From a virus (Duplodnaviria > Caudoviricetes), in IMG/VR virus record IMGVR_UViG_3300036786_000016, positions 1-39,843 of that record: DNA of 39,843 bases, one strand, 5' to 3'. Positions 1,739-28,388 of this stretch are shown here, piece by piece. The notes beneath the pieces are model-generated. The model worked only from the letters and a program-made list of their open reading frames with translations. It ran no database searches and had not been told where the DNA came from. The stretch's first letter is position 1; each line of letters begins with the position of its first letter. The position numbers and the translations under genes were made by a program.

Positions 1739-3919
1739 TCACTCATCATCGCCCTCCGAGTCTGCCGGAGCGTGCGTCCACGTTCGTACGTGTGTATGCA
1801 TATTCGATCGTCCTTCACGGCGGATGATCAGACACCCGGCCGACTCCAGCGACCCGAGCGCGGCGCCGAGATCTTCCGTGCGCGCCTTCATCGCCTCACG
1901 GATCTCGGTCTGACTCACGGCCCGGCCGCCCCGCTGCGACATCCACTCCGAAACCCGCTGCATGAGCACGGCGTTGCGATCGGCAAGCGGCTGAGGCTCG
2001 CACACTTCGAATTGGATATGCGTTTCATCCCGTGAGTCGACAATGACGTACGCCGCCTCCTGTGTTCGATCCGAGGCACGGAATGCGCCACACTTGGCAC
2101 GTATATAGCCGGGCCGGTCTTTTCCGATGCGCATGCGAATAGCGCCCCGGCTTCCGCGCCCTAATTGCTCCGCCACCTCGACCGTGTAACCGGCGCCGTC
2201 GAGCCCGGCCATTTTCGCCTGAGCGCCGATGGCGAACCTTCCGCGGGTGTCCTGATTCTTGGTGACATGATCGATCAGGACAACAGCGGCGCCGGTATTC
2301 TGCGCGAGCCGTCGCGGAAATGCGCGGATCCACAATGCCACCTGATCATTGTCTTTCGACGATTCCACGCCGAACATTCCCATACCTTCGGTGACGCCGT
2401 CGATAATGGCGACGGTAAACGGATTAGCCATCATCATTTCGTACGCGGGCCGCTCGTCGAGTCCACCAGGGCGGGCGTCGGGCCGGATGTAGCTGAACAG
2501 TCGTTTGATCGTGTCGCCGGGCACACCCATGAGCAGTAGGCGGCCGGCAACCGTCGACGCGTCGGATTCGAAGTCCACGTAGAGCGCCGATTTGCCGGAG
2601 AGCAGCACGGTCGCGCACACGATCTGCGCAAGCAGCGACTTGCCGGATTCACTCTCCCCGTGGAACGAGTGCACGAGCCCGGGGTAGAGCAGGTTCACGC
2701 CGTCACGCCGCGGCAGGTGCGCCGGTTGCACAGGCTGATGCGTGCCGTCGAGGATCGGCCCGAGGTCAACGGGTAGCCACGTTGACGGCGGCGGCGCGTC
2801 ATCGGCCACGCCGGGTGCTCCGGTGCCCGCTCCGAGCGGCTGAGCGGGCGCGGCGTACGGCTTGAGTAACGCCATCATCGGCGACGGTTCGTTGCCGGCG
2901 AGCTTCCCGGCGGCCGTGGCCATGCTGCCCCCGTGCTCCAAGTGGGCGTACGCGGCGAATTTCGTGTACTGCTGCTCCGGCTCGAACGTGCTCGACGTCG
3001 TGAACACCCACAGGCCGCCGGGATCGCCGGGTCCGTCGTCCGTCGTCGTCGCGGACACGCCGCTTTCCTTGCCAGGTCGACACCAGTAGGTTTTTCCACC
3101 GTGCTGGTACAGCTCACGCCATCCGTGGGGCGTGAGTATCTGCGCCCACGTATGCTGTCGGGCGAACACGTCGCCGGGTCGGTCGCCGTCGTTTGCCCCC
3201 GTGATCGCCGCGCCGACCGGCGACGTGTTCGCCATCGGCGCCATCTGCCGCACCGGCGCAGCGATGTGCAGGGAACGGCACCACACGTGAATCTCACGCC
3301 GCTGCTCAGCGGTGATCGTGGCAATCGTCGCCGGCGACCCCCACCGCTGCACCCACGGCCGCTGACCGTACGGCCCGGCAGGATCGGACGCTTCCGCGCG
3401 GGTCGGCGCGACAATCACATACCCGCCTTGACCGCGGGTCTCGATCAGCGTCCGTTTCGGCGTGAGACCTTTCGCCGCGTTGTCGCGCTCGGCGGCCGTC
3501 CACTCATTCGGGCGGGCCGGGCGACTGGCGAGCTTGGTGTTGCCGAGCGCCGGAGCATCGGACACCCGGTAGAAAAGATGCAGCCCGTTTTTCGGCGACT
3601 CCTCGCCGTAACCGTCGACAACGGCCTGTAGCCCGGGCACGTTCGGCAGCGCCGCCTGCAGCGCATCCCACAGCCCTTCGCGAACGGCGAGACCTTCGAA
3701 TTCGAGCATTTCGAGGTTGCCGGACGTGGCCCCACAGATAATGGCGATGCCGGCGTCGTCGGAGATCAGCGGCGGAAACTCCGGCCGCTGGTTGATCCAC
3801 TGGCGCCATTCGCCGTACGGTGCCTTGCTGCCGTCGAGCCTGATCGGTATGGGCGTGCACCCGGCGGCGTACCAGGTGAGCGCGGCGAGTGATTCGGGTG
3901 AGCTCATCGGCGCTCGCAT
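1739..3919 (-). CDS. Bifunctional DNA primase/polymerase fused to RepA/AAA helicase (start 3919 or 3907)
   Basis: Prim-Pol motifs (PIRLDGSKAP, GIAIICGATSGNLEMLEFEG, GLHLFY, IETRGQGGYVIVAP); Walker A GESESGKS; Walker B IIDG; LIDHVTK; C-terminal wHTH-like region. Confidence 0.9.
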   Translation of the reverse strand: MRAPMSSPESLAALTWYAAGCTPIPIRLDGSKAPYGEWRQWINQRPEFPPLISDDAGIAIICGATSGNLEMLEFEGLAVREGLWDALQAALPNVPGLQAVVDGYGEESPKNGLHLFYRVSDAPALGNTKLASRPARPNEWTAAERDNAAKGLTPKRTLIETRGQGGYVIVAPTRAEASDPAGPYGQRPWVQRWGSPATIATITAEQRREIHVWCRSLHIAAPVRQMAPMANTSPVGAAITGANDGDRPGDVFARQHTWAQILTPHGWRELYQHGGKTYWCRPGKESGVSATTTDDGPGDPGGLWVFTTSSTFEPEQQYTKFAAYAHLEHGGSMATAAGKLAGNEPSPMMALLKPYAAPAQPLGAGTGAPGVADDAPPPSTWLPVDLGPILDGTHQPVQPAHLPRRDGVNLLYPGLVHSFHGESESGKSLLAQIVCATVLLSGKSALYVDFESDASTVAGRLLLMGVPGDTIKRLFSYIRPDARPGGLDERPAYEMMMANPFTVAIIDGVTEGMGMFGVESSKDNDQVALWIRAFPRRLAQNTGAAVVLIDHVTKNQDTRGRFAIGAQAKMAGLDGAGYTVEVAEQLGRGSRGAIRMRIGKDRPGYIRAKCGAFRASDRTQEAAYVIVDSRDETHIQFEVCEPQPLADRNAVLMQRVSEWMSQRGGRAVSQTEIREAMKARTEDLGAALGSLESAGCLIIRREGRSNMHTHVRTWTHAPADSEGDDE

Positions 3920-4008: not shown

Positions 4009-4257
4009 CTACTCGGGCAGCTGACCCCAAGCGGTGATGACGCGCCAGGCGCTTGGCTGCATGGTGGTGGGGACGACGAGTCGGTACCCGTACAGAAACT
4101 CCGGCAGCTCGGTGGTCACGGGCGCGTTCCAACGGTAATGCTCGGTCCTTTCGCGCACGATTTCGTCGGCAACCAGCTGGCCAACCTCGACCATGCCGGA
4201 TGTGCAGCCGCGCCGCGCTTCGCCGACGGCATCGAGAATGACGCTGAGAACGTTCAC
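4009..4257 (-). CDS. Hypothetical protein with capsid-like C-terminal motif
   Basis: GTG start at 4257 overlaps the upstream stop (GTGA); LYGYRLVVPTTMQPSAWRVI segment. Confidence 0.6.
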   Translation of the reverse strand: MNVLSVILDAVGEARRGCTSGMVEVGQLVADEIVRERTEHYRWNAPVTTELPEFLYGYRLVVPTTMQPSAWRVITAWGQLPE

Positions 4258-4514
4258 TCCGGCACCTCCCGCCACTCGCTGACGCCGAACCGGCCGAATT
4301 CGATCTTGACGGTACCGTCCGGGCTGGCTGTGACATCGAATTCATGCGACGCGAGGTATTTCTTGGCGTGCCGCGATGTTGCCGCGGCAACCGCCCTGAG
4401 CACGTCGACATCGTCGTGTGCGCCGCTGAGTACGGTCCGGATGATGTGCGGGCCGCCACCGGGCGCGTTCTGTGACCGGCCGATGCTCTGCATGATGATC
4501 TCGATGCGGGTCAC
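4254..4514 (-). CDS. Hypothetical protein
   Basis: GTG start at 4514 overlaps the upstream stop (GTGA); 3' part of ORF 4254..4868. Confidence 0.55.
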   Translation of the reverse strand: MTRIEIIMQSIGRSQNAPGGGPHIIRTVLSGAHDDVDVLRAVAAATSRHAKKYLASHEFDVTASPDGTVKIEFGRFGVSEWREVPE

Positions 4515-4804
4515 GGGGTCAACCCACCGGGATACTGCGTGGTCGGCGCGCAGCGTTCCCACCGGAGCGAGTGCATGCCGGTCCCGTCGAACGCTGCGCC
4601 GTAGCTGCGCCGGATATCCATGCTGACGGTCGGGGCGAGCTTGACCGTGACGCATCCCTCGATCATCGACATGATGGCGCGCGCCATGTTGACCGAGTTG
4701 AAATGCTCGTTGTCGAGCTCGACGTTGAACGGCTCTCGACCTTCGACCCGCACGACGTACGTGGAGGTCGGCCGCGGGCCCGGGCCGTTGCGCTGGGCTC
4801 TCAT
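4511..4804 (-). CDS. Hypothetical protein
   Basis: ATGA overlap with the upstream gene; globular-looking sequence. Confidence 0.6.
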   Translation of the reverse strand: MRAQRNGPGPRPTSTYVVRVEGREPFNVELDNEHFNSVNMARAIMSMIEGCVTVKLAPTVSMDIRRSYGAAFDGTGMHSLRWERCAPTTQYPGGLTP

Positions 4805-5496
4805 GCCGACTCATCGTCAGGCTCGGCGGTGACGGCGAGCGAGTTGGAATACTCGGCGCGCTCGCCATGATCGAATTGGCTGCAGCCCCATCGTCCGCAC
4901 GACGAAAACCCAGTCGCGTGACTCTCGCGCTGATGACGCGAGAACATCTCGGCGAGCGCGTCGACGTGTGCGTCGACCTTGGTCAGCGACTCAGCTGCAG
5001 CCGCCTCGATGCCGTCACGGCCGGGCTCGACCGGCGTCTCGTTAACGGGCTGGACTTCGACCGGATGCGCCGACCGGTGGCGTGCCGGTTCCATTCGGTT
5101 GTACAGCGCAACGCTGCGACGCAACGTGTCGCGGTCGGTCGCCACAAACTTCGTGCCGTCTCTGGTGTACGCATGAAACGGCCCGTCCGGCGATGAGCCG
5201 TAGACGCGGACGCCTTCCGGCTTGGTGCTGTCGAGTGGCGGGTCGGCGTTTTTGTTGTCGAACGCGATGAGCGCAGCCTTGACGTGCTCGCGGAGTTGGA
5301 TAAATTCCTCCGCTATCACAGCCTGCCGGGCGAGCAGGGTATTGATGTCCATTGCCCGCCTCTTCGACTCGCTGAGCATGGTGTTTTGTTTGATTCCGAG
5401 CTGCCGAAGATCTTCGCCCAGATACGGGAACTGATCTTGCAGCATGGCGAGCGCGATGCGCCACATGCGCTGGTCTCGCTTGGTCTTAAGTTTCAT
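4801..5496 (-). CDS. Hypothetical protein (helical N-terminal region)
   Basis: Start trimmed to ATG 5496 (MKLKTKRD) downstream of a terminator hairpin. Confidence 0.65.
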   Translation of the reverse strand: MKLKTKRDQRMWRIALAMLQDQFPYLGEDLRQLGIKQNTMLSESKRRAMDINTLLARQAVIAEEFIQLREHVKAALIAFDNKNADPPLDSTKPEGVRVYGSSPDGPFHAYTRDGTKFVATDRDTLRRSVALYNRMEPARHRSAHPVEVQPVNETPVEPGRDGIEAAAAESLTKVDAHVDALAEMFSRHQRESHATGFSSCGRWGCSQFDHGERAEYSNSLAVTAEPDDESA

Positions 5497-5528
5497 CGTC
5501 TGTCCGATCTTGGTGTGTGTGCGGCGGT

Positions 5529-5571
5529 GAAAGTGGCGGCCGGGGCAGGGAAGAGAGCCACCGGCCGCCAC
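5529..5571 (-). terminator. Intrinsic terminator after the SSB-like gene
   Basis: GTGGCGGCCGG / CCGGCCGCCAC 11-bp stem followed by TTTC on the minus strand. Confidence 0.65.
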
Positions 5572-5584
5572 GCTATCGAGGGGC

Positions 5585-6487
5585 TCAGCCCTGGTACTGC
5601 TGCGGGTACTGCTGCTGTTGCATGTTCGCGTACGCCTGCTGAGCCTCGGGCGCGCCCGGGCCGACGATGCCGGGCCGATACCCGCCCGGCACCTGCTGCG
5701 GCTGCTGCTGACCGTACGGGGCAGCCGGGTACTGCTGCTGTGGCGGCTGGCCATAGCCCTGAGGTGCCGGAGCGTACGCCTGCGGCTGAGGCTGGCCGTA
5801 ACCCTGCGGCTGGCCGTAGCCGGGCATCGGCTGCTGCCCCTGAGGTGCCGGAGCATACTGCGGTGGCACGTTCGGCACGCTCTGCATGGCCTTGAGCTGC
5901 TCATCGGTTCCGAGTTCCGCCTGCCAGTTCGGCCGCCGGGTCACGAAATCATTCGCACGCTGCACACTGGCCGGATTCTCCGACTCGTCGTTGAGCATGA
6001 ACGGCGCCGAGTTGCTGCCCCGGGCCGTGCCCTTCGTCATGCGGCCAAGAACCGGCTCGCCGATCTGCCGGGCAAGCCCGGCGGCGAGAACCTTGCCACC
6101 CCACATGACGCCGATGAACGTCTTGCCGGGTGCACCGTCGGCGCCGACGCCGTCGAGGTCGACAACGTTCACCTGAATCGCGTCGGACGCCGGCTTAGCA
6201 GCTTCCTTGACGCTGCCGTCCGGGTTGAGCACCTCGGCGCGCGGCGCGAAGAACGCCGGCAGCAGAGCAACCGGGTAGACGATGAGCAGCTTGTTGGCGA
6301 GGTCGGTTGCGGTCACACGGTCGCCGGACGGCGCCGCCTGAGGCTTCACGAACGACACCGGGCCGGGCGCGGGCGCGGGCGCGGGCGCCTGCTGTGGCTG
6401 GCCGTAGCCCTGCTGTGCCGGGTACTGCTGCGGTGGTGCGTACTGCGGTGCAGGCTGGCCGTAGCCCTGCGGGTAGTTGGGCTGCAC
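5585..6487 (-). CDS. Putative ssDNA-binding protein with Q/P/Y/G low-complexity arms
   Basis: GTG start with GAGAGGGG RBS; central globular domain (DLANKLLIVYP...VVDLDG...VLGRMTKG...SAPFML) resembling an actinophage SSB-like family; downstream of the Cas4-like nuclease. Confidence 0.55.
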   Translation of the reverse strand: MQPNYPQGYGQPAPQYAPPQQYPAQQGYGQPQQAPAPAPAPGPVSFVKPQAAPSGDRVTATDLANKLLIVYPVALLPAFFAPRAEVLNPDGSVKEAAKPASDAIQVNVVDLDGVGADGAPGKTFIGVMWGGKVLAAGLARQIGEPVLGRMTKGTARGSNSAPFMLNDESENPASVQRANDFVTRRPNWQAELGTDEQLKAMQSVPNVPPQYAPAPQGQQPMPGYGQPQGYGQPQPQAYAPAPQGYGQPPQQQYPAAPYGQQQPQQVPGGYRPGIVGPGAPEAQQAYANMQQQQYPQQYQG

Positions 6488-6537
6488 TTGGCTTGCCCCT
6501 CTCATTCGATGGTTGGCTGTGGCTTCTGCCGTTGCCG

Positions 6538-6616
6538 TTCCCCGGGCAGGATTCGAACCTGCGCCCACCGATTTCTAGCGGCCGTTTCGGCGCTCTGTCC
6601 ACTGAGCTACCGGGGA
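6538..6616 (-). tRNA. tRNA-like RNA (Arg-like body) with enlarged 13-nt anticodon loop, no encoded CCA
   Basis: TCCCCGG/CCGGGGA acceptor stem, TA, GCTC-AGTGGACA-GAGC D arm, CCGA/TCGG anticodon stem, TGGGC variable loop, GCAGG-TTCGAAT-CCTGC T arm; anticodon arm is 23 nt instead of 17. Confidence 0.85.
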
Positions 6617-6623
6617 AGATCAT

Positions 6624-6824
6624 TTAGATATCCGTCAATCTGACCTTGATCTTTGCGACCGCCTCGTCGATCAGGTCACGCAGGTCGAACAGATTGTCGA
6701 CGTCGCTCATGACCTGCGTGGATAAGCTGGTGACGGCGGCCGGCGAACCGTCCGGCCACGCAACGTCTGTCATCTCGGCAATGACGGTAACCCGTACTCC
6801 GATCACTTCGGCCACGATCCCCAT
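6624..6824 (-). CDS. Hypothetical protein
   Basis: Fits between the membrane gene and the tRNA-like element; exact start uncertain. Confidence 0.5.
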   Translation of the reverse strand: MGIVAEVIGVRVTVIAEMTDVAWPDGSPAAVTSLSTQVMSDVDNLFDLRDLIDEAVAKIKVRLTDI

Positions 6825-7096
6825 GCGTGCATATCGCCGAGCGCGTGCGTCATGTCGAGATCGGGTAGCGCCGTCATCTCGACACGCAACGGGCCGTCGG
6901 GCCGCTGGAGCTCGGCGAATTCGAGCATCGAGTGCACGTCCTCAGCGTCGGCGTAGCCGTTGTTATACGCCTCTCGGGCGCTGGCCGTGCTCATGTCGAG
7001 GCCGCTCCAGCGACCCATGATGAACGCCATGATCGTGCATCCGATGCCGCATGCCGCGACGACGTACAGCAAGATCATAAGCATGTTGTTGGTCAT
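6803..7096 (-). CDS. Membrane-anchored hypothetical protein
   Basis: N-terminal hydrophobic helix MLMILLYVVAACGIGCTIMAFIM; purine-rich RBS; first gene after a promoter. Confidence 0.65.
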   Translation of the reverse strand: MTNNMLMILLYVVAACGIGCTIMAFIMGRWSGLDMSTASAREAYNNGYADAEDVHSMLEFAELQRPDGPLRVEMTALPDLDMTHALGDMHAWGSWPK

Positions 7097-7139
7097 GTCT
7101 TCCCTGCCTCTATCTGCAATGTGTGACAGCTACGGACAC

Positions 7140-7168
7140 GAGCATACTCAACATGCACCAGCCGTCAA
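7140..7168 (-). promoter_or_regulatory. SigA-like promoter overlapped by an operator
   Basis: Minus strand TTGACG-16 nt-TATGCT; operator GAGCA-N9-TGCAC at 7140-7158. Confidence 0.65.
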
Positions 7169-7179
7169 GCGCCCGGATG

Positions 7180-8940
7180 TCACGGCGTCACGCCACGCGG
7201 GCCCGTGCCCCGCTTCGCCGCGGCCTGATACTCACGGCCACGGTCGCAGCTGAACCGCGTCAGCGGCGCCAGCGGCGCGTAGAACGGACAGAAACCACAG
7301 CCCTTGCCCGGCGTCGTCAGGATGATCGCCGGGCCCGCTTCCTCGGTACCGATCCACGGCTCATCTCGGGTTGCTGCGTCAACCCGCGTACCGACATCGC
7401 GCAACATGTCGAGCCGGGCAAGCGCCGCCGTGGCATTGGCGAAATCGGGCTTCCGCTCGATCACCAGCAGTCCATCGAGGAAACCCGACCGCGGCCAGAG
7501 CGCCAAGTTGACCGAACGCACCTCATAACCGGCGCGCTGCCAACCGAGCGCGTACGAGTCGATCTGTACCCCGTACTTGCTGCCCGGCGCCAGCTTCTCC
7601 GCCTTCACCGTACGGAAACTGTCCGTCCCGAGCACCTTGTGATCGTAGATATCCACGATGCCGGAGCCCGGCGAGGTTTCCGTCGCCTCAGTCCACTCGA
7701 CATCAGCAAGATCCGTTGATCCGCTGATGTCGTCGCTGACCCACACCCGGCGCTCCAGCAGAAACCGCTCTCGGCCGATCGACATGTTGACAGCCTCGAA
7801 CACCTCGGCCAGCTTCGCATGCACGGCGGTACCGACGAACGACGCCCACGGGTCCGGTTGGTTCACAGCAGGGAAACCGAGCAGCTTACGCAGCACCCGG
7901 GCGTCGCACGGGTCGCCGATCTCCGACGGGCCGATAGCCGCCTGCAGCGTCCGCGGATCAGCGGCCGCGTATGCCCGCACCGACGCCATCAGCATCTCCC
8001 GCTTCGCGGCCAGCTTCGGCGCCACCGCGTTGCCGTCCCTATCCGTGATGACCGGCGCCGCGAACCGCACCGGTGCATATTCCTCGCGACGTGGCGTCTC
8101 ATCAGCAGGCGACGCTGTGCCCTGAGCGAGCGCGAGAGGATCGGCGGTGCGCGCAGCCGACTCGACAGCGGCCCGCACATCAGCGGCCGGCTCAGGACAG
8201 TTCAGGTGCCCGGGCTGGCCGCAACGCCGGCACGTGTCGGTGCGCCGGGCTTCCGCCATCTCGGCAATGAACTGATCATTGGGCGTGTACGACAGCCGCG
8301 CGGGCATGTGCGCCAGGTCGGTACCGAGCGCGGAAATACGGGTGCCGCGATCCATCGCCAGAATCACGCCCGGCGGAATGTTCGGATCCTCGACGATTTC
8401 CATGCCGGCCGCCCAGTTCGGCGGCGTGGCCGTGGCCGCACGCTCCGCCCGCTGCTCGGCGGTGAGCGCGCGATTGCCGATCGCGTACCCGGTGGCAAGC
8501 TCGCTCTCGGCGGTAGTGATCGCCGTCCGCATCTCGTCGAGGTTCTCCGGAAGCGGAGCCGGCGACCAGTAAACGTAGCCATCGGCGGCCTGCTGAGTCA
8601 TCGTCGGCGCAGCAGGCGGAGCCTGGTTGGTCGACGGCACGATGGACAGGCTGACGCCGGCACGGTTGCGCACCGAGTCCGCCGGGTCGCCGGTCAGGAT
8701 CGCGCGCTCACCGTGGAAAACGAAATGCGAGTCCGGCGCCCAACCGCAACAGCCCGGCGCGTTCAGCGGCGTCATGCACGGCTCAGGTGCGCGTGTGTTG
8801 GCGCTGGCCGCAACCTGCCAATCAAGGTCGCGCTCATCGACGTGAATCGGGGCACGGAACACCACCGGCGCCGTGCGGAGCTCGCCGGCAGGGTCCGGCT
8901 CCAACCAGTCGCCTTGCAACGGTGCACGAAATTGGATCAT
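7180..8940 (-). CDS. Cas4/RecB-like (PD-(D/E)xK) exonuclease with long mosaic N-terminal extension
   Basis: IGPSEIGDPCDAR, GTAVHA, ERRV, SGSTDL, DHK, QIDSYALG, CGFCPF; ATG 8940 overlaps the upstream stop. Confidence 0.85.
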   Translation of the reverse strand: MIQFRAPLQGDWLEPDPAGELRTAPVVFRAPIHVDERDLDWQVAASANTRAPEPCMTPLNAPGCCGWAPDSHFVFHGERAILTGDPADSVRNRAGVSLSIVPSTNQAPPAAPTMTQQAADGYVYWSPAPLPENLDEMRTAITTAESELATGYAIGNRALTAEQRAERAATATPPNWAAGMEIVEDPNIPPGVILAMDRGTRISALGTDLAHMPARLSYTPNDQFIAEMAEARRTDTCRRCGQPGHLNCPEPAADVRAAVESAARTADPLALAQGTASPADETPRREEYAPVRFAAPVITDRDGNAVAPKLAAKREMLMASVRAYAAADPRTLQAAIGPSEIGDPCDARVLRKLLGFPAVNQPDPWASFVGTAVHAKLAEVFEAVNMSIGRERFLLERRVWVSDDISGSTDLADVEWTEATETSPGSGIVDIYDHKVLGTDSFRTVKAEKLAPGSKYGVQIDSYALGWQRAGYEVRSVNLALWPRSGFLDGLLVIERKPDFANATAALARLDMLRDVGTRVDAATRDEPWIGTEEAGPAIILTTPGKGCGFCPFYAPLAPLTRFSCDRGREYQAAAKRGTGPRGVTP

Positions 8941-9233
8941 TGGTGTCTCGCTTCGGGTAGGAGATGCACGGGGATGCATCCGGTAATGATCAGTTCGTTG
9001 ATCGTGCGGGAACCGAAACACGTCTCGGCCGCCAGGTGCGCGGAGAGCAGGCGGCCAGCTTGAACCACTTCCGGGAGGTGATCGGCGCACGCATGCGTCG
9101 AGACAAGCCCCCATCCGTAATCTTGCGTGTCCTCCACCATCAGGTGATACACGGCATCCTGTGGGCAGCGCGGGCCGTAGCCGTCGACAGAGTCCGTGTG
9201 GCCGCACCGCGTGCCCGCTTCGTTCTCATCCAT
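8937..9233 (-). CDS. Cys/His-rich hypothetical protein (start 9233 or 9263)
   Basis: RCGH...RCPQDAVYH...ACADH motifs; stop coupled to the nuclease start. Confidence 0.55.
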   Translation of the reverse strand: MDENEAGTRCGHTDSVDGYGPRCPQDAVYHLMVEDTQDYGWGLVSTHACADHLPEVVQAGRLLSAHLAAETCFGSRTINELIITGCIPVHLLPEARHQ

Positions 9234-9285
9234 CGGCCGGCCGATGCCATGCGCGAGCGGCATCACACAGGATCGCAATACGCCA

Positions 9286-9768
9286 TCAGAACCCCCGCCG
9301 CACGACGTGATTGCACGGGGTCGACCGGACGATGGAAAACCGCTGAGGCTTCCGCCCGGCACTGAGCGAGCCGGGCAACTCCACGATCTCTGTGTGCAAC
9401 CCGAGCACGACAGCGAAACACTCGACCGTACCGCCGCTGCTGTCATCGATCGGGAACCGGCACACAACACGCGTGGTCGCATCCTGCTCGGCGTAATCGC
9501 CGCACTCGCACCGGTGCCGACCCACATGCCCGGACGGGTTCGGCGTCGCCGTCGCCAGGCCGTCCGGGTCCGGCACCTCGACCATTTCCCGCATGCACCA
9601 GTGCAGCGTGCCGGGCTTGTCCTTCGGCGGCGCCATCTCGCCCCACGTCACGCCGCACCGCTTCCCCCGGTAGCCGCGTTTGGTGTGCTCATCGAACAGC
9701 TGGCGCTCATCCTTGCCGACGTTGTAGTCAAGACCGGTGATCGGTGTCAGGTTCAACCCCTCAGGCAT
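9286..9768 (-). CDS. Cys/His-rich hypothetical protein
   Basis: ATG 9768 overlaps the RuvC stop region; RCG...HWC...GHVGRHRCECG. Confidence 0.6.
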   Translation of the reverse strand: MPEGLNLTPITGLDYNVGKDERQLFDEHTKRGYRGKRCGVTWGEMAPPKDKPGTLHWCMREMVEVPDPDGLATATPNPSGHVGRHRCECGDYAEQDATTRVVCRFPIDDSSGGTVECFAVVLGLHTEIVELPGSLSAGRKPQRFSIVRSTPCNHVVRRGF

Positions 9769-10417
9769 GGGTACCCACCTCCGCTTTCCGTGCGCGGGTC
9801 TTGCGGGCCGGCTTGCCACCGGTGGCCGTGGCCAGTGCGGCGAGATGCGTCGCCGGCAGCTTCGCGAGCGGGCAGTTGACGAGTGCGGCGGCGAGCGCGG
9901 CGCAGACGGCGGCGTCGGCGAGGTTGTCGTCCCCGCCGGTTTCGAACATCGGGAACCGCCGGGCAACTGCGTCGATCATGGCGCCCTTGCCGGCGTTGCC
10001 CTTGCCGGTGGCGTACACCTTGAGCACGCTCGGGGGGATGAGCAGCACCGGTATGTTGCGTTCGAAAAGCGCCCTGAGCAGGGAAAAGTAGATGTACCCG
10101 CGCTCGAACAGTCCACCGGTGGCGGCCGGGCCGGCGACGGTGGCGCGTTCCATCACGATCGATCGCGGGTAGACTGGGCCGGTGCTCACCTCGGCCGAGC
10201 CGATGGCAGCCCGCACGATGTTTTCGACCAGTAGATCCATGGTCGAGATGGCTTCGCCGGCGTTCATGGTGGTGAGCCCGGTAGCGCCCTTGACGTAGCT
10301 GAACGTGCGCAGTATTTCCGGCAGCGGCTCGGACGGGTCGGGTGACACGTATTCGAGACCGTGCACGCGAACGATTCCGGTTGCGGTACCGGAGAGATCG
10401 ATCCCTGTGACATGCAT
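9761..10417 (-). CDS. RuvC-like Holliday junction resolvase
   Basis: VTGIDLSGTATG, VMER, PPSVLKVYATGKGNAGK, DDNLADA: RuvC catalytic acidic motifs; start trimmed to ATG 10417. Confidence 0.88.
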   Translation of the reverse strand: MHVTGIDLSGTATGIVRVHGLEYVSPDPSEPLPEILRTFSYVKGATGLTTMNAGEAISTMDLLVENIVRAAIGSAEVSTGPVYPRSIVMERATVAGPAATGGLFERGYIYFSLLRALFERNIPVLLIPPSVLKVYATGKGNAGKGAMIDAVARRFPMFETGGDDNLADAAVCAALAAALVNCPLAKLPATHLAALATATGGKPARKTRARKAEVGTHA

Positions 10418-10476
10418 GTGCGGCAATCCTTTTCGGGTAGATGGTGCAGTTGTGGAGATAACCTCCGTTATGCGCG

Positions 10477-10650
10477 TTACTCGGGCGCGATCATTTCTAT
10501 GATCGGATCGTGTGGGTACGCGATCACGACTTGCTTGCCACAGCCCCATGGGCATGGCGCGAGGTGCGCTGTCGCAACGCGGCGATTCGGGTCTGCGATC
10601 CAATGGCCGCAAATCAGAATCGCGAAGTGTGTTCCGACCATAATTTGCAT
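10477..10650 (-). CDS. Small hypothetical protein (CGH...CPWGC)
   Basis: TAATG overlap with the upstream stop at 10650; Zn-ribbon-like residues. Confidence 0.5.
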   Translation of the reverse strand: MQIMVGTHFAILICGHWIADPNRRVATAHLAPCPWGCGKQVVIAYPHDPIIEMIAPE

Positions 10651-10859
10651 TATTTGTCCCATGTCGGATTGTCGGCATACCAGCGACGAGCGTCCGCCAT
10701 GCCCGCGCGGTGCGCGGCCGAGAGAACGCCCTCCCGGTAGCCGAGCTTGATGCGCGTTCTGATCTCCATCGGCAACCGGAACCAGCACCGACGGCACGCG
10801 TACTGATGAGACGGCACGCCCGGGTGCCCACAGTGGCCGGGGCAGGTGTGCCCCGGCAT
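10650..10859 (-). CDS. Small Zn-binding phage protein
   Basis: HTCPGHCG...ACRRCWFRLP pattern of a common small phage family; TAATG coupled at both ends. Confidence 0.65.
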   Translation of the reverse strand: MPGHTCPGHCGHPGVPSHQYACRRCWFRLPMEIRTRIKLGYREGVLSAAHRAGMADARRWYADNPTWDK

Positions 10860-11134
10860 TACGGTCCGCTCCCGATGACCTTGCCGGACCTGTCCTTGCA
10901 CACGTGCGGATGCGCGACGCCGGCCGCGCCGACCCACGTGCCCCCGGCGGCTCGGCAGTCCTTCGCGTTGCTCGGGTTCACCGGCGTGCCACAGTTCGCG
11001 GCCAGGCCACCGACGCCGAGCAGCACGATTAGCGTGGCAATCACGATCGAGCTCAAGCAGTCAACCCGGCGCTTATGCTCACGCTTCGCTTTTGGGAACC
11101 GCCCGGCACGCTCCGCGTTCGGATTCCAACCCAT
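10859..11134 (-). CDS. Membrane/exported protein
   Basis: Basic N-terminus, hydrophobic helix, then CRAAGGTW...C small domain. Confidence 0.65.
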   Translation of the reverse strand: MGWNPNAERAGRFPKAKREHKRRVDCLSSIVIATLIVLLGVGGLAANCGTPVNPSNAKDCRAAGGTWVGAAGVAHPHVCKDRSGKVIGSGP

Positions 11135-11140
11135 GATCTT

Positions 11141-11557
11141 TTACCGTGCCTTTCGTGGTTGCGGCGCCCGGCGAGCCGGCAGCGCCGTCGTGAAACCGTC
11201 CAACTGACGCCAGCGCTCAGCACACGGCTTGCACATCAGCGTCACCTCGCCGTTGAGCACCCGTCGGTATCGGGCGTGCGTGGTATGACCGGCGCCTACG
11301 GTGCCGTTGCGCGCACGGTCGTACTCCAGCCTCACACCCTCAGAGCAGGGCTGTGGCACGCCGTAGTACGGCGACCACGCCGGACGGGTTTTCAAGCTGG
11401 AGCGGACAGCTGGCGGCCGGGCCGAGCGGCGCTTGACGCCGGCGTCCGTCAGGCCGAGCCCCTTGCCGACCGGCGTCGGCTCGATCTCGAACAGCGGCGC
11501 TGTTTCCATGCCGAGCCCGACATGCGAGGTGCGCAACGCGCCTATTTTCCTTGGCAT
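11141..11557 (-). CDS. Hypothetical protein (possible Zn-binding)
   Basis: TGATG coupling; PCSEG...MCKPCA. Confidence 0.55.
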   Translation of the reverse strand: MPRKIGALRTSHVGLGMETAPLFEIEPTPVGKGLGLTDAGVKRRSARPPAVRSSLKTRPAWSPYYGVPQPCSEGVRLEYDRARNGTVGAGHTTHARYRRVLNGEVTLMCKPCAERWRQLDGFTTALPARRAPQPRKAR

Positions 11558-11709
11558 CAGAGCTCACCAGCCAACCGGCGCCGGTCCCACTCGGCCAGAG
11601 CATCACGGAGCCCGATGTACGCCGAGCTCCCGACCCGGCCAGCCTGCGGGTCCTCACGCATGCACTGGCCGAGCCTCTCGATCTTCTCGGCGAGCTCACC
11701 CTTACTCAT
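11557..11709 (-). CDS. Small hypothetical protein
   Basis: ATG 11709 overlaps the upstream stop region; stop coupled to the next gene. Confidence 0.45.
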   Translation of the reverse strand: MSKGELAEKIERLGQCMREDPQAGRVGSSAYIGLRDALAEWDRRRLAGEL

Positions 11710-11875
11710 CGTCGTCAACCTCGCAGCCGTCGTGAACCGCTCGACCATCTTGCATCCTGATCTCATCACCTTCATCGATACGGTCATGGCACTCACCGCA
11801 CCGACCCTCGAATGCCGCCGTGAATACGGGGCCGGCCGAGTTTGTCACATACCTTGGCGGCTGAAACTCCGGCAT
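11702..11875 (-). CDS. Small Zn-finger protein
   Basis: AAFEGRCGECHDRIDEGDEI...VHDGC (CxxC...HxxC); TGATG coupling. Confidence 0.65.
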   Translation of the reverse strand: MPEFQPPRYVTNSAGPVFTAAFEGRCGECHDRIDEGDEIRMQDGRAVHDGCEVDDDE

Positions 11876-12195
11876 CACGGGCGCATCGACTGCTCGGCAA
11901 GGCGCGGCAGGTACTGGATAAGGATGTCGGTGCTGTCCGCAGACACGCCGACGGCGAGCCATCCGGGCGGAACGTCGAGCCCGGCACGCAACACCCGGAC
12001 ATCGCCGGGCAGATCAACCTGTACATGCCGCTCCGGCAGCTCGACGGTGGTGGTCCGGCTCATCCGCCGCTTTGCCCTGAGGCACAGCGGGTAGCCCGTG
12101 ATCAGCCACAGGCCGCCGGTGCAGAATCCGGCGATCATGTGTTTGGTGTACCAGCCGATCGATATCGGCGCGGTGGTGACGAGCGTGCGACTCAT
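11875..12195 (-). CDS. Membrane protein
   Basis: HMIAGFCTGGLWLITGYPL hydrophobic segment; ATGA coupling. Confidence 0.6.
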   Translation of the reverse strand: MSRTLVTTAPISIGWYTKHMIAGFCTGGLWLITGYPLCLRAKRRMSRTTTVELPERHVQVDLPGDVRVLRAGLDVPPGWLAVGVSADSTDILIQYLPRLAEQSMRP

Positions 12196-13064
12196 GCTGT
12201 GACCAGCTCTCCATATGCGTTGATCTTGCCTTGGTGGAAACGCTTCGCCGATCGACGACGCTGCGCCGGGGTCTCACGCCGCGGCCCGGCCGCGGGGATC
12301 GCAAGGAACTGCTCCGTTGTCGTCCGGGTGCCGGCCGCCAGAGCCCGGCGGTGCAGCTCGACCTCCCGCGCGTCGCTGTCCCGCATCACTTGCGCCAGAT
12401 ACACCCATCCGACGCCGGCGTGCTGGAGCATCCCGCGCTTGCATTTGGCCCTGGCGAGCTCCAGTCGATCATCGAGCGCCGCGAACTCCGCGGCCGTCTG
12501 AGCTTCGATGATCTCCAGCTCGCTCGGCCAGTTGAAATCCGGAACGCCAGGTGCCAGCAGGGAACCGGGGCCGACGGACTCAACCTCGGCGAGAGGCGAC
12601 CAATTGATCGTGGCGCCCTTGCTGCGCTCGTTGTCGAGCTCCAGTGCGGCGGCCAGCGACTTGCCGTTGGCTTCCCATGCGTGCGTTTCGTCGAGAACGG
12701 TGAACGCCGGCCGAGCGCCGCGGTTGTCGTCGGGCTTGATGTAGTCGGCGGCATCCGGCGACATGGTCGGGTGCCATCCGGTCCGATCCGTTCCCGGCCG
12801 CCAGCCTGCTTCCCTGAGACGCTCGAAGTGCACACGCTCGAACAGTGCGAGATCGGCCGCGGATGTATCCGCAAACACGCTGCGCGTGGGAGGCGAAACG
12901 ATGGCGCGGCCGGCAGGCAGGTACGCGCTCGGCGACAGTCGCTCAGCCGCCTGATTCCGTGCCACGGCGACGGCTGTGCGGGTCGGCGTGCCGAACCATG
13001 ACCAGGCGGCCACCATGATGAGCACGAGTGCCACGCCGGAGACGATCATTGCCTTGGTGTCCAT
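12192..13064 (-). CDS. Membrane-anchored protein containing a terminase Walker-B-like segment
   Basis: CAGGAG RBS; N-terminal TM helix; internal RGARPAFTVLDETHAW. Confidence 0.7.
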   Translation of the reverse strand: MDTKAMIVSGVALVLIMVAAWSWFGTPTRTAVAVARNQAAERLSPSAYLPAGRAIVSPPTRSVFADTSAADLALFERVHFERLREAGWRPGTDRTGWHPTMSPDAADYIKPDDNRGARPAFTVLDETHAWEANGKSLAAALELDNERSKGATINWSPLAEVESVGPGSLLAPGVPDFNWPSELEIIEAQTAAEFAALDDRLELARAKCKRGMLQHAGVGWVYLAQVMRDSDAREVELHRRALAAGTRTTTEQFLAIPAAGPRRETPAQRRRSAKRFHQGKINAYGELVTA

Positions 13065-21859: not shown

Positions 21860-23040
21860 GTCCTTTCGAGTGCGCCGAGGCGACGCCGGGTCGCCTGATT
21901 TTCCTTGATCTGCGCCGTGTCGGAGCTCGCCGAGCCCGTGCCTATCGTAGGCTGCACGGTTTCCACGCCATCCGGTCCCACGGTGATCGTGACCGAGGTG
22001 ACGACGTCTTTGCCTGTGCGGCCCGGTGCGTATTCATATCCAACGATGTCTCCGACGTTATAGTCAACGCCGAGCACCGTACCGGGCGAATCCGTTGCGG
22101 CCGTCGTGAGCTGTGTTTGTTCGCCGTCCGTGGTGAGTTGATCGTTGCCCGCCTGCGTCAACGTGGCCGTGTCGGTGGCCGAGTTGGAGACGAACACCTC
22201 GGCCCGCCCCCATTTGGTGACCGCGGCCGAGTTGGCGACCTCGACAATGGTCCGGCTCGTACCCGTGCCGTCGCCACCCACGATCGCCACCGTGCTGGCA
22301 GGCGCCGTTTCGACCAGCTTGAGCGACTGGAGATTGCCGAGCGAGCGCGAGTAGACGATGGTGGCCGACCGGTCCACCGGCACATACACCTGAAATTCAA
22401 GTGACGGACCTGAAACCTGCCGGGTGCGGTAGCCGAGTCCGCCACCGGCGGCGCAGACGGTGCGCAGGATATCGCCGAGCCGATCGAACCGGGTCCAGTA
22501 GGTGACGTTCGAACCGGCGCCGGCATCGGTCTCGATGGTGAGGTTGGCGACCTTCCGTGCCGTGAGCGCGGAAGGTCCGACGTTGCGGTCAACGAGGTCC
22601 TTGGCGACAGTCTCGGCCGGCAAGCCCGGCGTCGTCAGGATGTCGGCGACGACAGACGATTGGTGCTCAGAGTCGTGCGTCGTGCTCGGGTAGGTGATGC
22701 GCCGAGCGATATCGAGCCCGTCGTCAGCAAACTGCATGACCATTTGCCCGGGGTCGGCGTCGTCGCCGGAGCCTGCCGACCAACTGATGTCGCCGGGCCG
22801 CTCGATCGGTCCGGACGCGAAATATTCCCATGCAAACCCGAGCGCGGGGGCCACGTTGCGCAGGATGACGATGCGGTTCGGCGGAACGGCGAGAGTGAGT
22901 AGCTCAGGCGTGAGGTTCGCAGTGACCGAGTAGGTATCAATATCGTTGAATCTAATGATGAGCGTGAGGCCTGACCAGCGCACGAACTGGCCGATCGGCT
23001 GGAGCGTGCCGTCCGTGAAATACAGCTGGTAGGTACTCAT
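21856..23040 (-). CDS. Minor tail protein (Gp37-like baseplate hub)
   Basis: IRFNDID, RFDRLGDIL, AIVGGDGTGTSR, WGRAEVF, GVDYNVGDIV; second gene after TMP. Confidence 0.8.
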   Translation of the reverse strand: MSTYQLYFTDGTLQPIGQFVRWSGLTLIIRFNDIDTYSVTANLTPELLTLAVPPNRIVILRNVAPALGFAWEYFASGPIERPGDISWSAGSGDDADPGQMVMQFADDGLDIARRITYPSTTHDSEHQSSVVADILTTPGLPAETVAKDLVDRNVGPSALTARKVANLTIETDAGAGSNVTYWTRFDRLGDILRTVCAAGGGLGYRTRQVSGPSLEFQVYVPVDRSATIVYSRSLGNLQSLKLVETAPASTVAIVGGDGTGTSRTIVEVANSAAVTKWGRAEVFVSNSATDTATLTQAGNDQLTTDGEQTQLTTAATDSPGTVLGVDYNVGDIVGYEYAPGRTGKDVVTSVTITVGPDGVETVQPTIGTGSASSDTAQIKENQATRRRLGALERT

Positions 23041-23987: not shown

Positions 23988-26923
23988 TAGCGCGGTCCCC
24001 CGTTCCGTGCGAGCGCGTCACGCCGCGCGTCGAGTGCCTCAAGGTCGGTGATCGATAGCTCAGCACGCTGCGGGTAGATGTTCGTAGTATGCCCGCCCGT
24101 CGTGGTGACCACAGGCACCGTAGCGGAGCTCGCGCTATTCAGACTAGCGACGGCCGCGGCCGGAGGCGCCAGCGCAGCCACAACAGCGGCGGTGGCCATG
24201 TGCGCCGAATCCTTGACCCCCTGTGCGTATCCCTGCATGGTGAACTTGCCGACCTGCGCGAATTCAGTCGACGGCGAGTGAATTCCGAGCGCCGACTTGG
24301 CGCCGCTGAGAACTTTGCCCATCGCATGCTTGACGACGTCGATGGCGTGCCCGATGTCGCTCTCGATGCCCTTTATCATGCCCTCGACCAGGGATCTACC
24401 GATTCCTTCCATGGCCGAGATGGCGCCGGATGCGGCGCCTTTCAGCTTGCTCCCCAGCGACGACAGTGCGTCGCCGGCCTGCCCGGGCAGCTTCTTGACC
24501 TCGGCGATGGTGTTGGACACGCCAGACTTGAACCGAGCGACCAGCGACGACCAGGCGGACGAGACGATGGAGCCGACGCGTGAGCCGAGCGACTCGATCG
24601 CAGCGACAGCGCGACCGGGCAATTCCTTGGCGGTGGCGATGGCGAGGTTGACGCCAACGACAAACCGCGTGTGAACCGTCGTCCACATTGATTCGATCTT
24701 GGCGATGAGATCTGTACGAAGCTTCTCGGCAAACGCCACGATCTTGCCCGGCCACGTCGTCACCGCGGTGACGACGGCATCGATTCCGGCATGGAACAGA
24801 GCGACCGCCGTCGACCATAGATCCTTGATGACCTGCCAGATCTTGCCCGGCAGCGTGAGCGTCAGCTTGATGATGGTGCCGATGGCGAAACCGAGTGCGA
24901 ACAGCATGGCGTCGCCGGCGTCAACGATGATCTTCGCCAGCAAGCCGGGCAACGCCTTGAGCCCAGCCAGCATCTTGCCGGGCAGCGAGGTGAAGAACGA
25001 GATAACGGCGTTGAATGCCGCGGCCACGCCGGACGCGACGTTCTTGCCCAGCGACGCGAAAAATCCGCCGATGGATGATCCGATCGAGGTGAAGAACCCA
25101 CCGACGGCCGAGAGCGCGTCGCCGAGCCCGTGCAGAATCGACTCGCCGATCTTGGCAAAATTCAAGCCGGTGAGCAGCGTCGAGAACGACGTCAGCGGCC
25201 CGGTCAGCTTATTGAGCGGCGAGAGCAGCTCGAACAGCCCTTTGGCGATGAGCGAGATGAGTGGCGCGATCGCCTTCGAGGCCAGCAGCCCAACCAGCAC
25301 GGCCGCGAGTTTGATGATCGGCGCGGCGATGTCGACAGCGATGGTGAGCAACTGCGCCAGCAAGGTGATGAGCGGCGTGAGCGCGACCACGATCTGTACG
25401 ACCGGTGGCAGGATCGAGATCAGCGCCGGGATGATCGGCATCAGCGCGTTGAGCAGCGTGACCACCAGCGGCGCGATAGCGGCGAGGATCGGCCCGAGCG
25501 CGGAAGCGAGAGCCGACACAACAGCACCGATGACCGGCGCCAGCGCCTGAATGATCGTGGTGACGACGCTGAGGATCGGCGCGAGCACCTGCCCGAGCAC
25601 CGTTCCAATCTGCACGATGACCGGCGCCAACGCCTTGAAAACCGGTGCGAGGGTCGAGGCCAGCACGTTTCCGAGCGTGACCACAACGGGCAGCAGCGGC
25701 TTGAGCGCGGCCGACAATCCCGTGACGATGGCGGAGATGATCGGCGCGAACGCGGACACGATCGGCGCGAGCCCGCTGACCAGCGCCGATATCAACTTGG
25801 CCGCGAGCGGCAGAATGGGCGCAATGGCGGCCGCAATTTTGCCCAGCGCCGCGCCCGCGGGAAGTAACGCCGGGCCGAGGGTGCCGAGTCCAGTGGACAG
25901 CGCGGTGACCAGCGGCGTGAGAATCGGCGTGATCGCTGAGATGAGATTCGCCAGCACCGGCAGAATCGACGAGACCAGCCCACCGATGGCGGGCGCGAGC
26001 ACGTCGAGCGCCTTGCCGACAATCGGCGTGATCTGCGCGAGGCTGTTTTTGATGGCAGGGATCGCCGGCGAGAACGCGTTACTCAGCGCGATCGAGACTG
26101 TGTCTTTAAAGGTCGAGAACACGCCGAGCAGGGTCTGCGCTTGCTTGTCCATCGCTCCGGCTGCGCCGGGGAATTGTTTCATTCCCTGCAGCAGCTCTTG
26201 CACGCCGTCAGCGCCGGAGATGCTGCCCGCGCTGATCTCTTTCATGACCTGCGCGGTGGTCTGACCGCGCGCTGATGCGATGGCTGCGACGCCGGAGAAT
26301 CCGGGCAGCGCCTCGGAAATCTGGTCGAGGTTGTCGAGCGTCAGCTTGCCGGCCGAGCCAATCTGACCCATGGCGAGCGAGACGGAGTTCAGCCCTTGCG
26401 CGCCTGCGCCGGTGACTGAGGCCACGTTGCCGACGGTGGTCAGAAACGGGATTAGCTGATCTTGCGAGAGTCCGACGGACTTGCTGAACGCATCGAAGCG
26501 CCCGGCCGTCGCTGTCAGGTCAGTGAACTGAAACGGCGTCGCGGCAGCGAATTTCTGCAGCTGAGTGAATTGGGCGTTGCCTGCCTTGACGGAGCCCGTC
26601 AAGCTGTCGAAACTGATCTTGGTCTGTTCGAGCGTAGCCGCGGATTTGAGGCCGAACGCTGCGATACCGGCGACGATGGCGCCGCCACCGATCGCAGCCA
26701 CCTTGAGCCCGGTCGCGACCACCGACGCAACGTTGCTGAGGCCCTTCTTTGTCGCGTCGCCGAACTTCGACGAAAACGACTTGCCTGCCTGGTCGCCCGA
26801 TTCCTCAACCGCCGGGCCAACCGACGCCTTGAGCTCGGCCGCGAGCTCACTCTGCAGCTTGCCGGCGAACCCCTTGGCGCTCGGAATAATGGTGACGTAC
26901 GCGGTACCAACTTCGATCGCCAC
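23987..26923 (-). CDS. Tape measure protein
   Basis: 978 aa; EVGTAYVTIIPS start; FAAATPFQF tape-measure domain; long amphipathic Pro-periodic repeats. Confidence 0.95.
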   Translation of the reverse strand: MAIEVGTAYVTIIPSAKGFAGKLQSELAAELKASVGPAVEESGDQAGKSFSSKFGDATKKGLSNVASVVATGLKVAAIGGGAIVAGIAAFGLKSAATLEQTKISFDSLTGSVKAGNAQFTQLQKFAAATPFQFTDLTATAGRFDAFSKSVGLSQDQLIPFLTTVGNVASVTGAGAQGLNSVSLAMGQIGSAGKLTLDNLDQISEALPGFSGVAAIASARGQTTAQVMKEISAGSISGADGVQELLQGMKQFPGAAGAMDKQAQTLLGVFSTFKDTVSIALSNAFSPAIPAIKNSLAQITPIVGKALDVLAPAIGGLVSSILPVLANLISAITPILTPLVTALSTGLGTLGPALLPAGAALGKIAAAIAPILPLAAKLISALVSGLAPIVSAFAPIISAIVTGLSAALKPLLPVVVTLGNVLASTLAPVFKALAPVIVQIGTVLGQVLAPILSVVTTIIQALAPVIGAVVSALASALGPILAAIAPLVVTLLNALMPIIPALISILPPVVQIVVALTPLITLLAQLLTIAVDIAAPIIKLAAVLVGLLASKAIAPLISLIAKGLFELLSPLNKLTGPLTSFSTLLTGLNFAKIGESILHGLGDALSAVGGFFTSIGSSIGGFFASLGKNVASGVAAAFNAVISFFTSLPGKMLAGLKALPGLLAKIIVDAGDAMLFALGFAIGTIIKLTLTLPGKIWQVIKDLWSTAVALFHAGIDAVVTAVTTWPGKIVAFAEKLRTDLIAKIESMWTTVHTRFVVGVNLAIATAKELPGRAVAAIESLGSRVGSIVSSAWSSLVARFKSGVSNTIAEVKKLPGQAGDALSSLGSKLKGAASGAISAMEGIGRSLVEGMIKGIESDIGHAIDVVKHAMGKVLSGAKSALGIHSPSTEFAQVGKFTMQGYAQGVKDSAHMATAAVVAALAPPAAAVASLNSASSATVPVVTTTGGHTTNIYPQRAELSITDLEALDARRDALARNGGPR

Positions 26924-27828: not shown

Positions 27829-28368
27829 CTTATCGCTGAACTTGGTGCAGACAACACCGTTGTTCGGGTACATGGTCACGGTGACCTCGTACCCGATCTC
27901 AGTGTCGGACTTGTAGACGAGATCCGACCGGGCGGAAACCTCACCGTTGCTGATGTAGATCCGCTCGTGATCGTTGCCGTCGATGATGTCGAGCACGAAC
28001 GCGCGCGGGTCCGGCGTCGGCACCATGATGTCGATCTTGTAGCCGGTCGAACCGTCCGAGACCATGACCGAGCCCTTGTGATACAGCTCGACAGCCTCGC
28101 GCTTGTTCTCGATCATCATGAACTTGATCGTGGCCGTAGAGCCACTGATGATCGTCCGGACGGTTACCCCGCCCTGCCATGCCTTGATCTCCGTCGTGTC
28201 GTCGGAGTACGACTCGGTGATGCCGTCGTCCGATATGTACCCGAGATCCGCGAACAGCACATCCAACACTGCGATGGCGGTAGCGGGTGCGTCGGGTGCG
28301 TCGCCGGCCGCGCACGCGTAAACGGCGCCCGTGACGGCGACATTAACGTTTGACGAGCTAGTAGCCAC
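27805..28368 (-). CDS. Major tail protein
   Basis: DLGYISDDGITE...IKAWQGG...VRT motif of actinophage tail tube proteins; GAGAGGGG RBS. Confidence 0.9.
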   Translation of the reverse strand: MATSSSNVNVAVTGAVYACAAGDAPDAPATAIAVLDVLFADLGYISDDGITESYSDDTTEIKAWQGGVTVRTIISGSTATIKFMMIENKREAVELYHKGSVMVSDGSTGYKIDIMVPTPDPRAFVLDIIDGNDHERIYISNGEVSARSDLVYKSDTEIGYEVTVTMYPNNGVVCTKFSDKASWAPAA

Positions 28369-28388
28369 GGTGATGCCCCTCTCTCTTG

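Follow-up and report, generated by a model that had tools for sequence, protein, structure and literature searches.

Terminase-, capsid- and tRNA-like stretches in the non-structural arm of a soil phage genome: probable captured patches and a putative cis-acting RNA signal

In phage T4, the stand-alone protein vs.8 resembles the terminase ATPase and contains both Walker motifs; the available text of its report describes it as toxic with EcAvs2 and not protective (PMC13601566). The known Avs sensors are described, in the accessible parts of two papers, as reading folded domains over large interfaces (PMC13601566, PMC13581612): the contact of EcAvs2 with the folded terminase ATPase buries ~2,800 square angstroms, with ATP as a bridge (PMC13601566), and Avs7, Avs8 and Avs10 bind the A-domain of the capsid protein (PMC13581612). 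Upx was predicted to bind unfolded strands of the terminase ATPase by beta-augmentation, and the ATPase domain alone activates it (PMC13601566). Phage tRNAs, as far as the available text of two further papers goes, counter tRNA-cutting defences (retron-Eco7/PtuAB, PrrC and PARIS) by supplying a working tRNA (PMC11555353, PMC13728456), and this rescue is abolished when the anticodon or the stems are altered (PMC11555353). Here we describe four stretches in the non-structural arm of the virus record IMGVR_UViG_3300036786_000016 (39,843 bases, analysed whole and called the window) that resemble such molecules: a peptide similar to the Walker B strand of the large terminase subunit (TerL), two peptides similar to the major capsid protein (MCP), and a tRNA-shaped gene.

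The likely genes of the window all lie on the minus strand. A first-pass annotation had read the four stretches as an early-expressed arsenal of decoys for bacterial defence sensors and nucleases; the stretches themselves were recovered, all on the minus strand, and a different origin is favoured here. It is probable, on balance, that the four look-alikes are not one system and that they comprise lineage-specific captured patches of virion genes together with a tRNA-shaped RNA signal acting in cis. The protein pieces are likely to be recently captured fragments rather than conserved immune decoys, because the two closest relatives lack them. These relatives are G043, which is syntenic with the window (MCP 77%, exonuclease 65%, Gln/Pro-rich gene 52%, primase N-part 61%) and was found by a capsid scan followed by a profile search, and G071, found via an exonuclease alignment, with the slot before the primase outside its coverage. 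A further record, G072/L226, was left out of all counts because it is identical to G043 over 16,141 bases.

A terminase-like patch and a capsid copy in a relative

The terminase-like patch is located in the linker of a 290-amino-acid (aa) protein:

12192..13064, minus strand: 290-aa member of an unnamed actinophage protein family, comprising a hydrophobic helix at the N-terminus, a variable low-confidence linker and a conserved C-terminal helical region
12618..12788, minus strand: linker segment of 57 codons flanked by two blocks conserved in the family; the G071 orthologue has ~12 codons there
12639..12722, minus strand: TerL Walker B-like patch within the insertion, with a DNA-profile match at 12653-12719

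The patch corresponds to residues 115-142 of the 290-aa open reading frame (ORF), while the profile match spans residues 114-137 only. The resemblance to TerL noted in the first-pass annotation was above chance. Searches with the peptide by tblastn gave terminases in 40/40 of the best 40 of 141 records (best E 0.07), phrog_9 TerL was its single PHROG match (E 0.089), and the 14 residues past the patch core, which lie outside the search pattern, were among the top 4 of 1944 early-proteome 14-mers. Pairwise scores of 70-84 (0/300 shuffles each) were obtained with five TerLs of another clade, which had been chosen using the peptide itself. On these comparisons, the patch is very probably homologous to TerL. 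A scan with the Walker B pattern gave 62 IMG/VR matches, all 62 in frames of TerL length and 58 with a Walker A pattern in view, and no free-standing copy was found among them.

Of the features of the large terminase ATPase (PF03354, phrog_9), the Walker B strand with its acidic pair is present in the patch; a Walker A motif and a full ATPase domain are absent, no Pfam match was found, and the structural model has no beta-sheet. The patch is related to the TerLs of a clade from Arthrobacter AZ-like, Microbacterium and Gordonia phages (phrog_9), among whose members are the Microbacterium phage Barnstormer and the Arthrobacter phage Tweety19; it has core residues in common with these TerLs and a similar start to the following helix. 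Compared with the TerLs of this clade, the patch has ~25 residues, lacks Walker A, the ATPase fold and the nuclease, and sits within an unrelated protein whose N-terminal hydrophobic helix is likely a membrane anchor. The best donor match, L061, shares 12/15 core residues and 80% DNA identity across 45 bases, and differs by three silent and three replacement codons, too few to reveal selection. The window's own TerL was rejected as a source, with 218/300 shuffles scoring equally well. The patch resembles T4 vs.8 in being terminase-derived sequence outside the packaging operon, but vs.8 is a whole ATPase-like domain that activates EcAvs2, whereas the window has a single strand-helix piece.

Eight members of the 290-aa family were seen, and the gene follows directly after a helix-turn-helix (HTH)-like gene in the window, G043 and G071; no Pfam or PHROG family was assigned to it. 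Only the window's member (1/8) carries the patch, which is found in 0/7 homologues. Five of these homologues came from a full protein-library search and score <= -3.3 bits on the TerL profile. Another candidate, P0007, was dropped as a repeat-protein artefact. Word-based homologue searches with the 290-aa ORF and an 88-aa ORF returned the query alone, the same kind of search from alignment A1 gave no new member, and scans with single proteins or small alignments gave no relatives. The G071 orthologue joins the flanking blocks with ~12 residues, against 57 in the window, so that the linker appears to be largely an insertion. Its sequence differs in each family member, and residues 90-135 have a predicted local distance difference test score (pLDDT) <50 in a model built from a 6-sequence alignment. 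As a caution, three homologues contain a short linker motif that aligns beneath the first residues of the patch.

A set of 15 structural-protein profiles was run in three forward frames over the non-structural arms of the window, G043 and G071 (37,043 residues), with 90 shuffled arms as the null (maximum 11.3 bits). Two matches were above the null maximum. One was the TerL patch, at 18.2 bits (null maxima 7.0 and 11.3; nhmmer E 2e-7), a circular score since the donors had been picked with a pattern derived from the patch. The other was a capsid strand in G043, at 14.9 bits, located in the following gene:

G043 26455-26832 (L176 7955-8332), directly after the exonuclease gene: 125-aa ORF with an in-frame capsid copy near 26608

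In this ORF, 24 bases are identical to the MCP gene of G043 itself, in frame and on the most conserved capsid strand; the next-longest exact match between structural and early regions of G043 is 17 bases. The copy contains eight consecutive identical codons and no synonymous divergence in its core, a direct sign of DNA copying. A different gene was found at the same place in G071. As judged from these alignments, the G043 capsid copy is a clearer case than any in the window, and virion-gene DNA appears to be copied into non-structural genes in this phage family, each copy being private to one lineage. In an unbiased PHROG scan of 132 pieces of 40 residues each, 34 gave a match at E <=1, and three of the matches were to head-and-packaging families (two pieces on the TerL patch and one on an 82-aa ORF described below; E 0.14-0.2), a suggestive but weak result.

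Capsid-like stretches of the window

The two capsid-like motifs map to a small orphan ORF and to an exonuclease gene:

4009..4257, minus strand: 82-aa orphan ORF directly upstream of the primase gene, of which 4027-4164 aligns weakly and collinearly with the HK97-type capsid A-domain
7180..8940, minus strand: Cas4-like exonuclease (phrog_1674) whose N-terminal extension is long and variable
8350..8406, minus strand: 19-aa hairpin-like motif in the exonuclease, resembling a capsid A-domain strand, not significant

Like the TerL-like peptide, both motifs are in frame within ORFs showing a coding-type bias in GC content at third codon positions, and no support for any of the three peptides was found in Pfam, NCBIfam or the PDB. 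The window's own MCP or TerL DNA was rejected as the source of the three peptides.

The motif at 4036-4095 in the 82-aa ORF weakly matched phrog_15928, 'major head protein' (E 0.054), and across six frames of the window genome the ORF was the sole match of this profile (E 0.0033), which also matches the real MCP of phage QueenHazel. With a hidden Markov model (HMM) of MCPs, the C-terminal half scored 3.6 bits with the A-domain in the right order, a score reached by ~4% of 500 shuffles. By hhalign the ORF was no better than controls, given an E of 0.18 versus 0.26-0.33 for two neighbouring control ORFs, and BLASTP against two MCPs gave nothing. A single-sequence model had a mean pLDDT of 41.5, too poor to give a fold, and the Atlas neighbours of the ORF are unnamed viral proteins of 89-116 aa (0.91). 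Homologue searches found none, and the one relative covering that place lacks it (0/1), the slot before the primase of G043 holding an unrelated small ORF. Compared with the HK97-fold MCP A-domain (PF05065; phrog_15928), the ORF is collinear around the conserved glycine-strand motif, but the match is borderline and there is no P-domain or E-loop. Its identity as a very diverged stand-alone capsid A-domain is tentative, and we rate it slightly below an even chance.

The exonuclease motif, which the first-pass annotation had also taken for a capsid look-alike, did not stand up. No match was found in PHROG, Pfam, the PDB or by tblastn against phages, nor with an HMM of 69 related MCPs, on which 16/100 shuffles were equally good; hhalign gave E 0.55. 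As a positive control, a segment of the real MCP matched PF05065 at E 5.8e-6. Atlas leads for the motif include capsid clusters, all below the Atlas thresholds. It sits in an insertion (~8080-8403) that is missing in G071 and replaced in G043, where a loosely similar hairpin occurs ~25 residues further along, so that it is in register in 1/3 related phages. It is probably a chance hairpin. A hand-made hairpin pattern was matched by both capsid-like motifs, with at least two matches in 3/2000 shuffles and matches in 17/69 real MCPs; the pattern was written after viewing both motifs and is given little weight. Searches for PF05065 and PF25209 in records of the donor TerL clade gave nothing in 38 and 33 records, respectively.

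The exonuclease gene also contains a 19-base exact repeat (7306-7324 and 22624-22642), shared in the same frame between its C-terminus and a minor tail gene. The repeat adjoins an 8-residue insertion relative to G043, and the next-longest match is 16 bases. It may be another captured patch, or chance.

The tRNA-shaped gene and its genome context

The fourth stretch lies next to a Gln/Pro-rich gene:

6538..6616, minus strand: tRNA-shaped gene with 7/7 acceptor pairs, canonical D and T arms, a 15-base loop at 6572-6586 and no encoded CCA
5585..6487, minus strand: Gln/Pro-rich gene (phrog_870, unassigned function), which immediately follows the tRNA-shaped gene in each of the three related phages

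The Gln/Pro-rich gene is inferred to encode a single-stranded DNA-binding (SSB)-like protein. The tRNA-shaped gene matched Rfam RF00005 at 54.7 bits, ARAGORN assigned no anticodon to it, and its anticodon arm comprises a 4-bp stem and a 15-base loop, versus the canonical 5-bp stem and 7-base loop. It is predicted not to read codons, in agreement with the first-pass annotation. An assembly error in the loop was not seen in a second assembly, probably of the same sample, and antisense pairing of the loop with phage mRNA was rejected (no match of at least 10 bases). A crude scan found no dedicated promoter-like site directly upstream of the gene.

A tRNA-shaped fold occurs at the same place, upstream of the SSB-like gene, in 3/3 related phages. 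In G043 and G071 it sits between the stop codon of the upstream gene and the Gln/Pro-rich gene and, by pairing done by hand, contains a T arm, a 6-bp acceptor-like stem and a long middle hairpin; one acceptor-like pair and one T-stem pair are changed on both sides between the two. Rfam gave no match at this fold in G043 at E 0.1. The folds at G043 ~28299-28375 and L224 ~12097-12172 lack a D stem, have a long hairpin at their centre and form a G-U as the third pair of the acceptor-like stem; in these respects they look somewhat like the tRNA-like domain of tmRNA. Decoding has been lost by two distinct routes, yet shape and position persist, a pattern pointing to a cis role for the shape of the acceptor and T arm.

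T4 RNA C and D are non-decoding tRNA-like phage RNAs. As in these and in the 'tRNA-OTHER' gene of Arthrobacter phage MidnightRain, the tRNA ends are kept in the window and the anticodon region is enlarged; the window gene differs in being single, with ~8 extra bases, and in lying inside a replication/recombination operon, not a tRNA cluster. Anti-defence phage tRNAs have in common with it a tRNA-shaped gene in a non-structural region, but as described in the available text of their reports they decode, replace the cut host tRNA and need the anticodon, whereas the window RNA is without an anticodon loop. The same design was found in Microbacterium phage PrincePhergus (before DNA polymerase I), in MidnightRain and in 20 IMG/VR contigs. 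With the window, this set comprises 23 records in which 12 different middles occur and 6 or 7 of the 7 acceptor positions pair; the search pattern selected enlarged middles, so the set shows recurrence, not frequency. The loci L008-L027 are recurring tRNA-like genes of phages in which the anticodon region is enlarged and the acceptor, D and T arms are intact; two near-identical variants occur in 13 contigs whose GC content is ~43%. The loops of the window (6572-6586) and PrincePhergus (L006 ~3030-3040) each contain a six-base GC palindrome, which could permit loop-loop pairing or may be chance in GC-rich DNA.

The 14-39 kb part of the window contains the TerL, portal, HK97-type capsid and tail genes, and the 0.7-14 kb part contains the HTH-like gene, RuvC, the Cas4-like exonuclease, the Gln/Pro-rich gene and the primase. 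The non-structural arm is called 'early' by deduction from gene content only, that is, its replication/recombination neighbours. Megablast against annotated phages found no close relative of the window, and the best matches of its exonuclease are in actinobacterial phages. A soil metagenome is the sole sequencing run containing the window, and the second assembly has zero differing letters. Other exonuclease loci among 80 fetched were distant, mostly with 26-41% identity, and showed no noteworthy free-standing match. By eye, an ORF at 75-485 has a pattern that is presumably HNH-endonuclease-like, and a TerS-like gene lies at the opposite contig end; these ends suggest that the genome is near-complete, the record itself being rated 52% complete.

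Capture, mimicry and chance

The explanation we favour is that the protein pieces are captured patches. Short-patch recombination likely brought the TerL patch into a variable linker, which seven relatives fill differently, and the patch is likely without a fixed function. Such patches would be picked up from co-infecting phages, or from the phage's own late genes, through illegitimate or relaxed recombination, would be tolerated by disordered linkers and would turn over quickly. Relaxed recombination as an origin of phage mosaicism is reportedly the subject of one study (PMC3945230). The first-pass annotation had named recombination debris from structural genes as its alternative, and this fits the protein pieces best, with the amendment that the TerL donor belongs to another phage clade and not to this phage. 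The tRNA-shaped gene, placed before the SSB-like gene, likely serves as a signal for RNA processing or stabilisation, and RNase P/RNase Z-type enzymes would cut it at its tRNA-like acceptor and T arm. Recognition of the acceptor and T arm by RNase P and RNase Z is established for tRNA bodies.

Several observations weigh against this explanation. Both copies that exceeded the null keep the reading frame and coincide with the best-conserved motif of a protein that is sensed (the TerL case being partly circular), which is the main reason to keep a mimicry reading alive, and in the capsid gene of G043 itself any copied region would have shown up. The head-and-packaging matches in the scan of 132 pieces were limited to two of the three peptides picked in the first-pass annotation. 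Strand binding by Upx and A-domain binding by Avs7, Avs8 and Avs10, as far as the available text of the reports describes them, make short pieces conceivable ligands (PMC13601566, PMC13581612). Only two close relatives, G043 and G071, were found, and the RNA middle differs between the window and both of them, so that any common ancestry of the RNA is presumptive.

In a mimicry reading, conserved motifs of sensed virion proteins would be repeatedly copied into accessory proteins, where they bind Upx or Avs7/8/10 without activating them, and the confinement of copies to single lineages would be the mark of an arms race and not of neutrality. The presence in 2/3 related phages of motif copies that differ from each other and are in frame speaks in its favour, as does the weak collinear A-domain match of the 82-aa ORF; so do, in the accessible parts of the papers, the strand-threading model of Upx (PMC13601566) and the binding of the A-domain by Avs7/8/10 (PMC13581612). 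However, the captured pieces are unconserved among relatives, the 8-codon core in G043 has no synonymous divergence, so that selection at the protein level is unsupported, the TerL donor clade differs from the phage's own, and a profile search can detect foreign pieces only if they are conserved motifs. In addition, vs.8 and isolated ATPase domains activate sensors, according to the available text (PMC13601566). We regard this reading as unlikely, and equally so its family-wide form, with the Walker B patch here, the G043 capsid strand and perhaps the mini A-domain as short-lived decoys beside a non-decoding tRNA mimic. If true, trigger mimicry would be an anti-defence strategy without a description in the literature searched, in which nothing was found on virion-motif decoys or on the RNA class of the window, most subscription papers and supplements being outside its scope. 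The available text of the EVADES preprint mentions DNA mimics and no terminase or capsid decoy (10.1101/2025.06.06.658234).

The stronger proposal of the first-pass annotation, a coordinated and co-inherited early arsenal in which four decoys pre-occupy sensors and anticodon nucleases, is highly improbable. All four stretches do exist in the non-structural arm and two have at least weak profile support, but the parts lie in unrelated host genes at spacings of 2-4 kb and are not inherited as a set, and the exonuclease motif fails every profile test. An RNA without an anticodon loop is also without the feature that anticodon nucleases recognise, consistent with the available text of PMC11555353. 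The fragments were unconserved (1/8 for the TerL patch, 1/3 for the exonuclease motif and 0/1 for the 82-aa ORF), and sequence comparison with the two relatives appears to have largely refuted the arsenal already. The weaker form of mimicry seems to survive, because a non-structural gene of G043 contains a different copy, from the capsid gene, that is in frame and statistically clear.

A separate possibility concerns the RNA alone, as a stable non-decoding tRNA mimic in trans that soaks up modifiers of tRNA 3' ends or elbow binders (CapRel-type) and not anticodon nucleases. Intact acceptor, D and T arms with enlarged middles in the window and 11 other distinct phage sequences are compatible with it, and CapRel is described, in the part of the report available, as pyrophosphorylating tRNA 3' ends (PMC13728456). 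There is, however, no encoded CCA, the gene is single-copy and has no promoter-like site directly upstream in the crude scan, and its fixed position before one gene suggests a cis role; we consider action in trans improbable. A shade less probable again is a reading in which the tRNA is a pseudogene undergoing decay and every protein resemblance arose by chance, the coding sequence being GC-rich and of low complexity. Database-level E-values of the TerL patch of just 0.07-0.2, the linker motif of three homologues aligning under the start of the patch, and the lack of Pfam, NCBIfam and PDB support for the three peptides would fit chance, but terminases made up 40/40 of the best 40 of 141 tblastn records, the flank test (top 4 of 1944) is non-circular, and the RNA retains 7/7 acceptor pairs and perfect D and T arms, with a tRNA-shaped fold recurring in both relatives.

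If the favoured explanation of captured patches and a cis-acting RNA signal is true, these loci would give a small-scale picture of how phage accessory genes acquire 8-25-codon pieces of structural genes, and would caution against reading such pieces as decoys without relatives. The position-conserved, non-decoding tRNA shape would be a separate lead on the role of phage 'tRNA-OTHER' genes.

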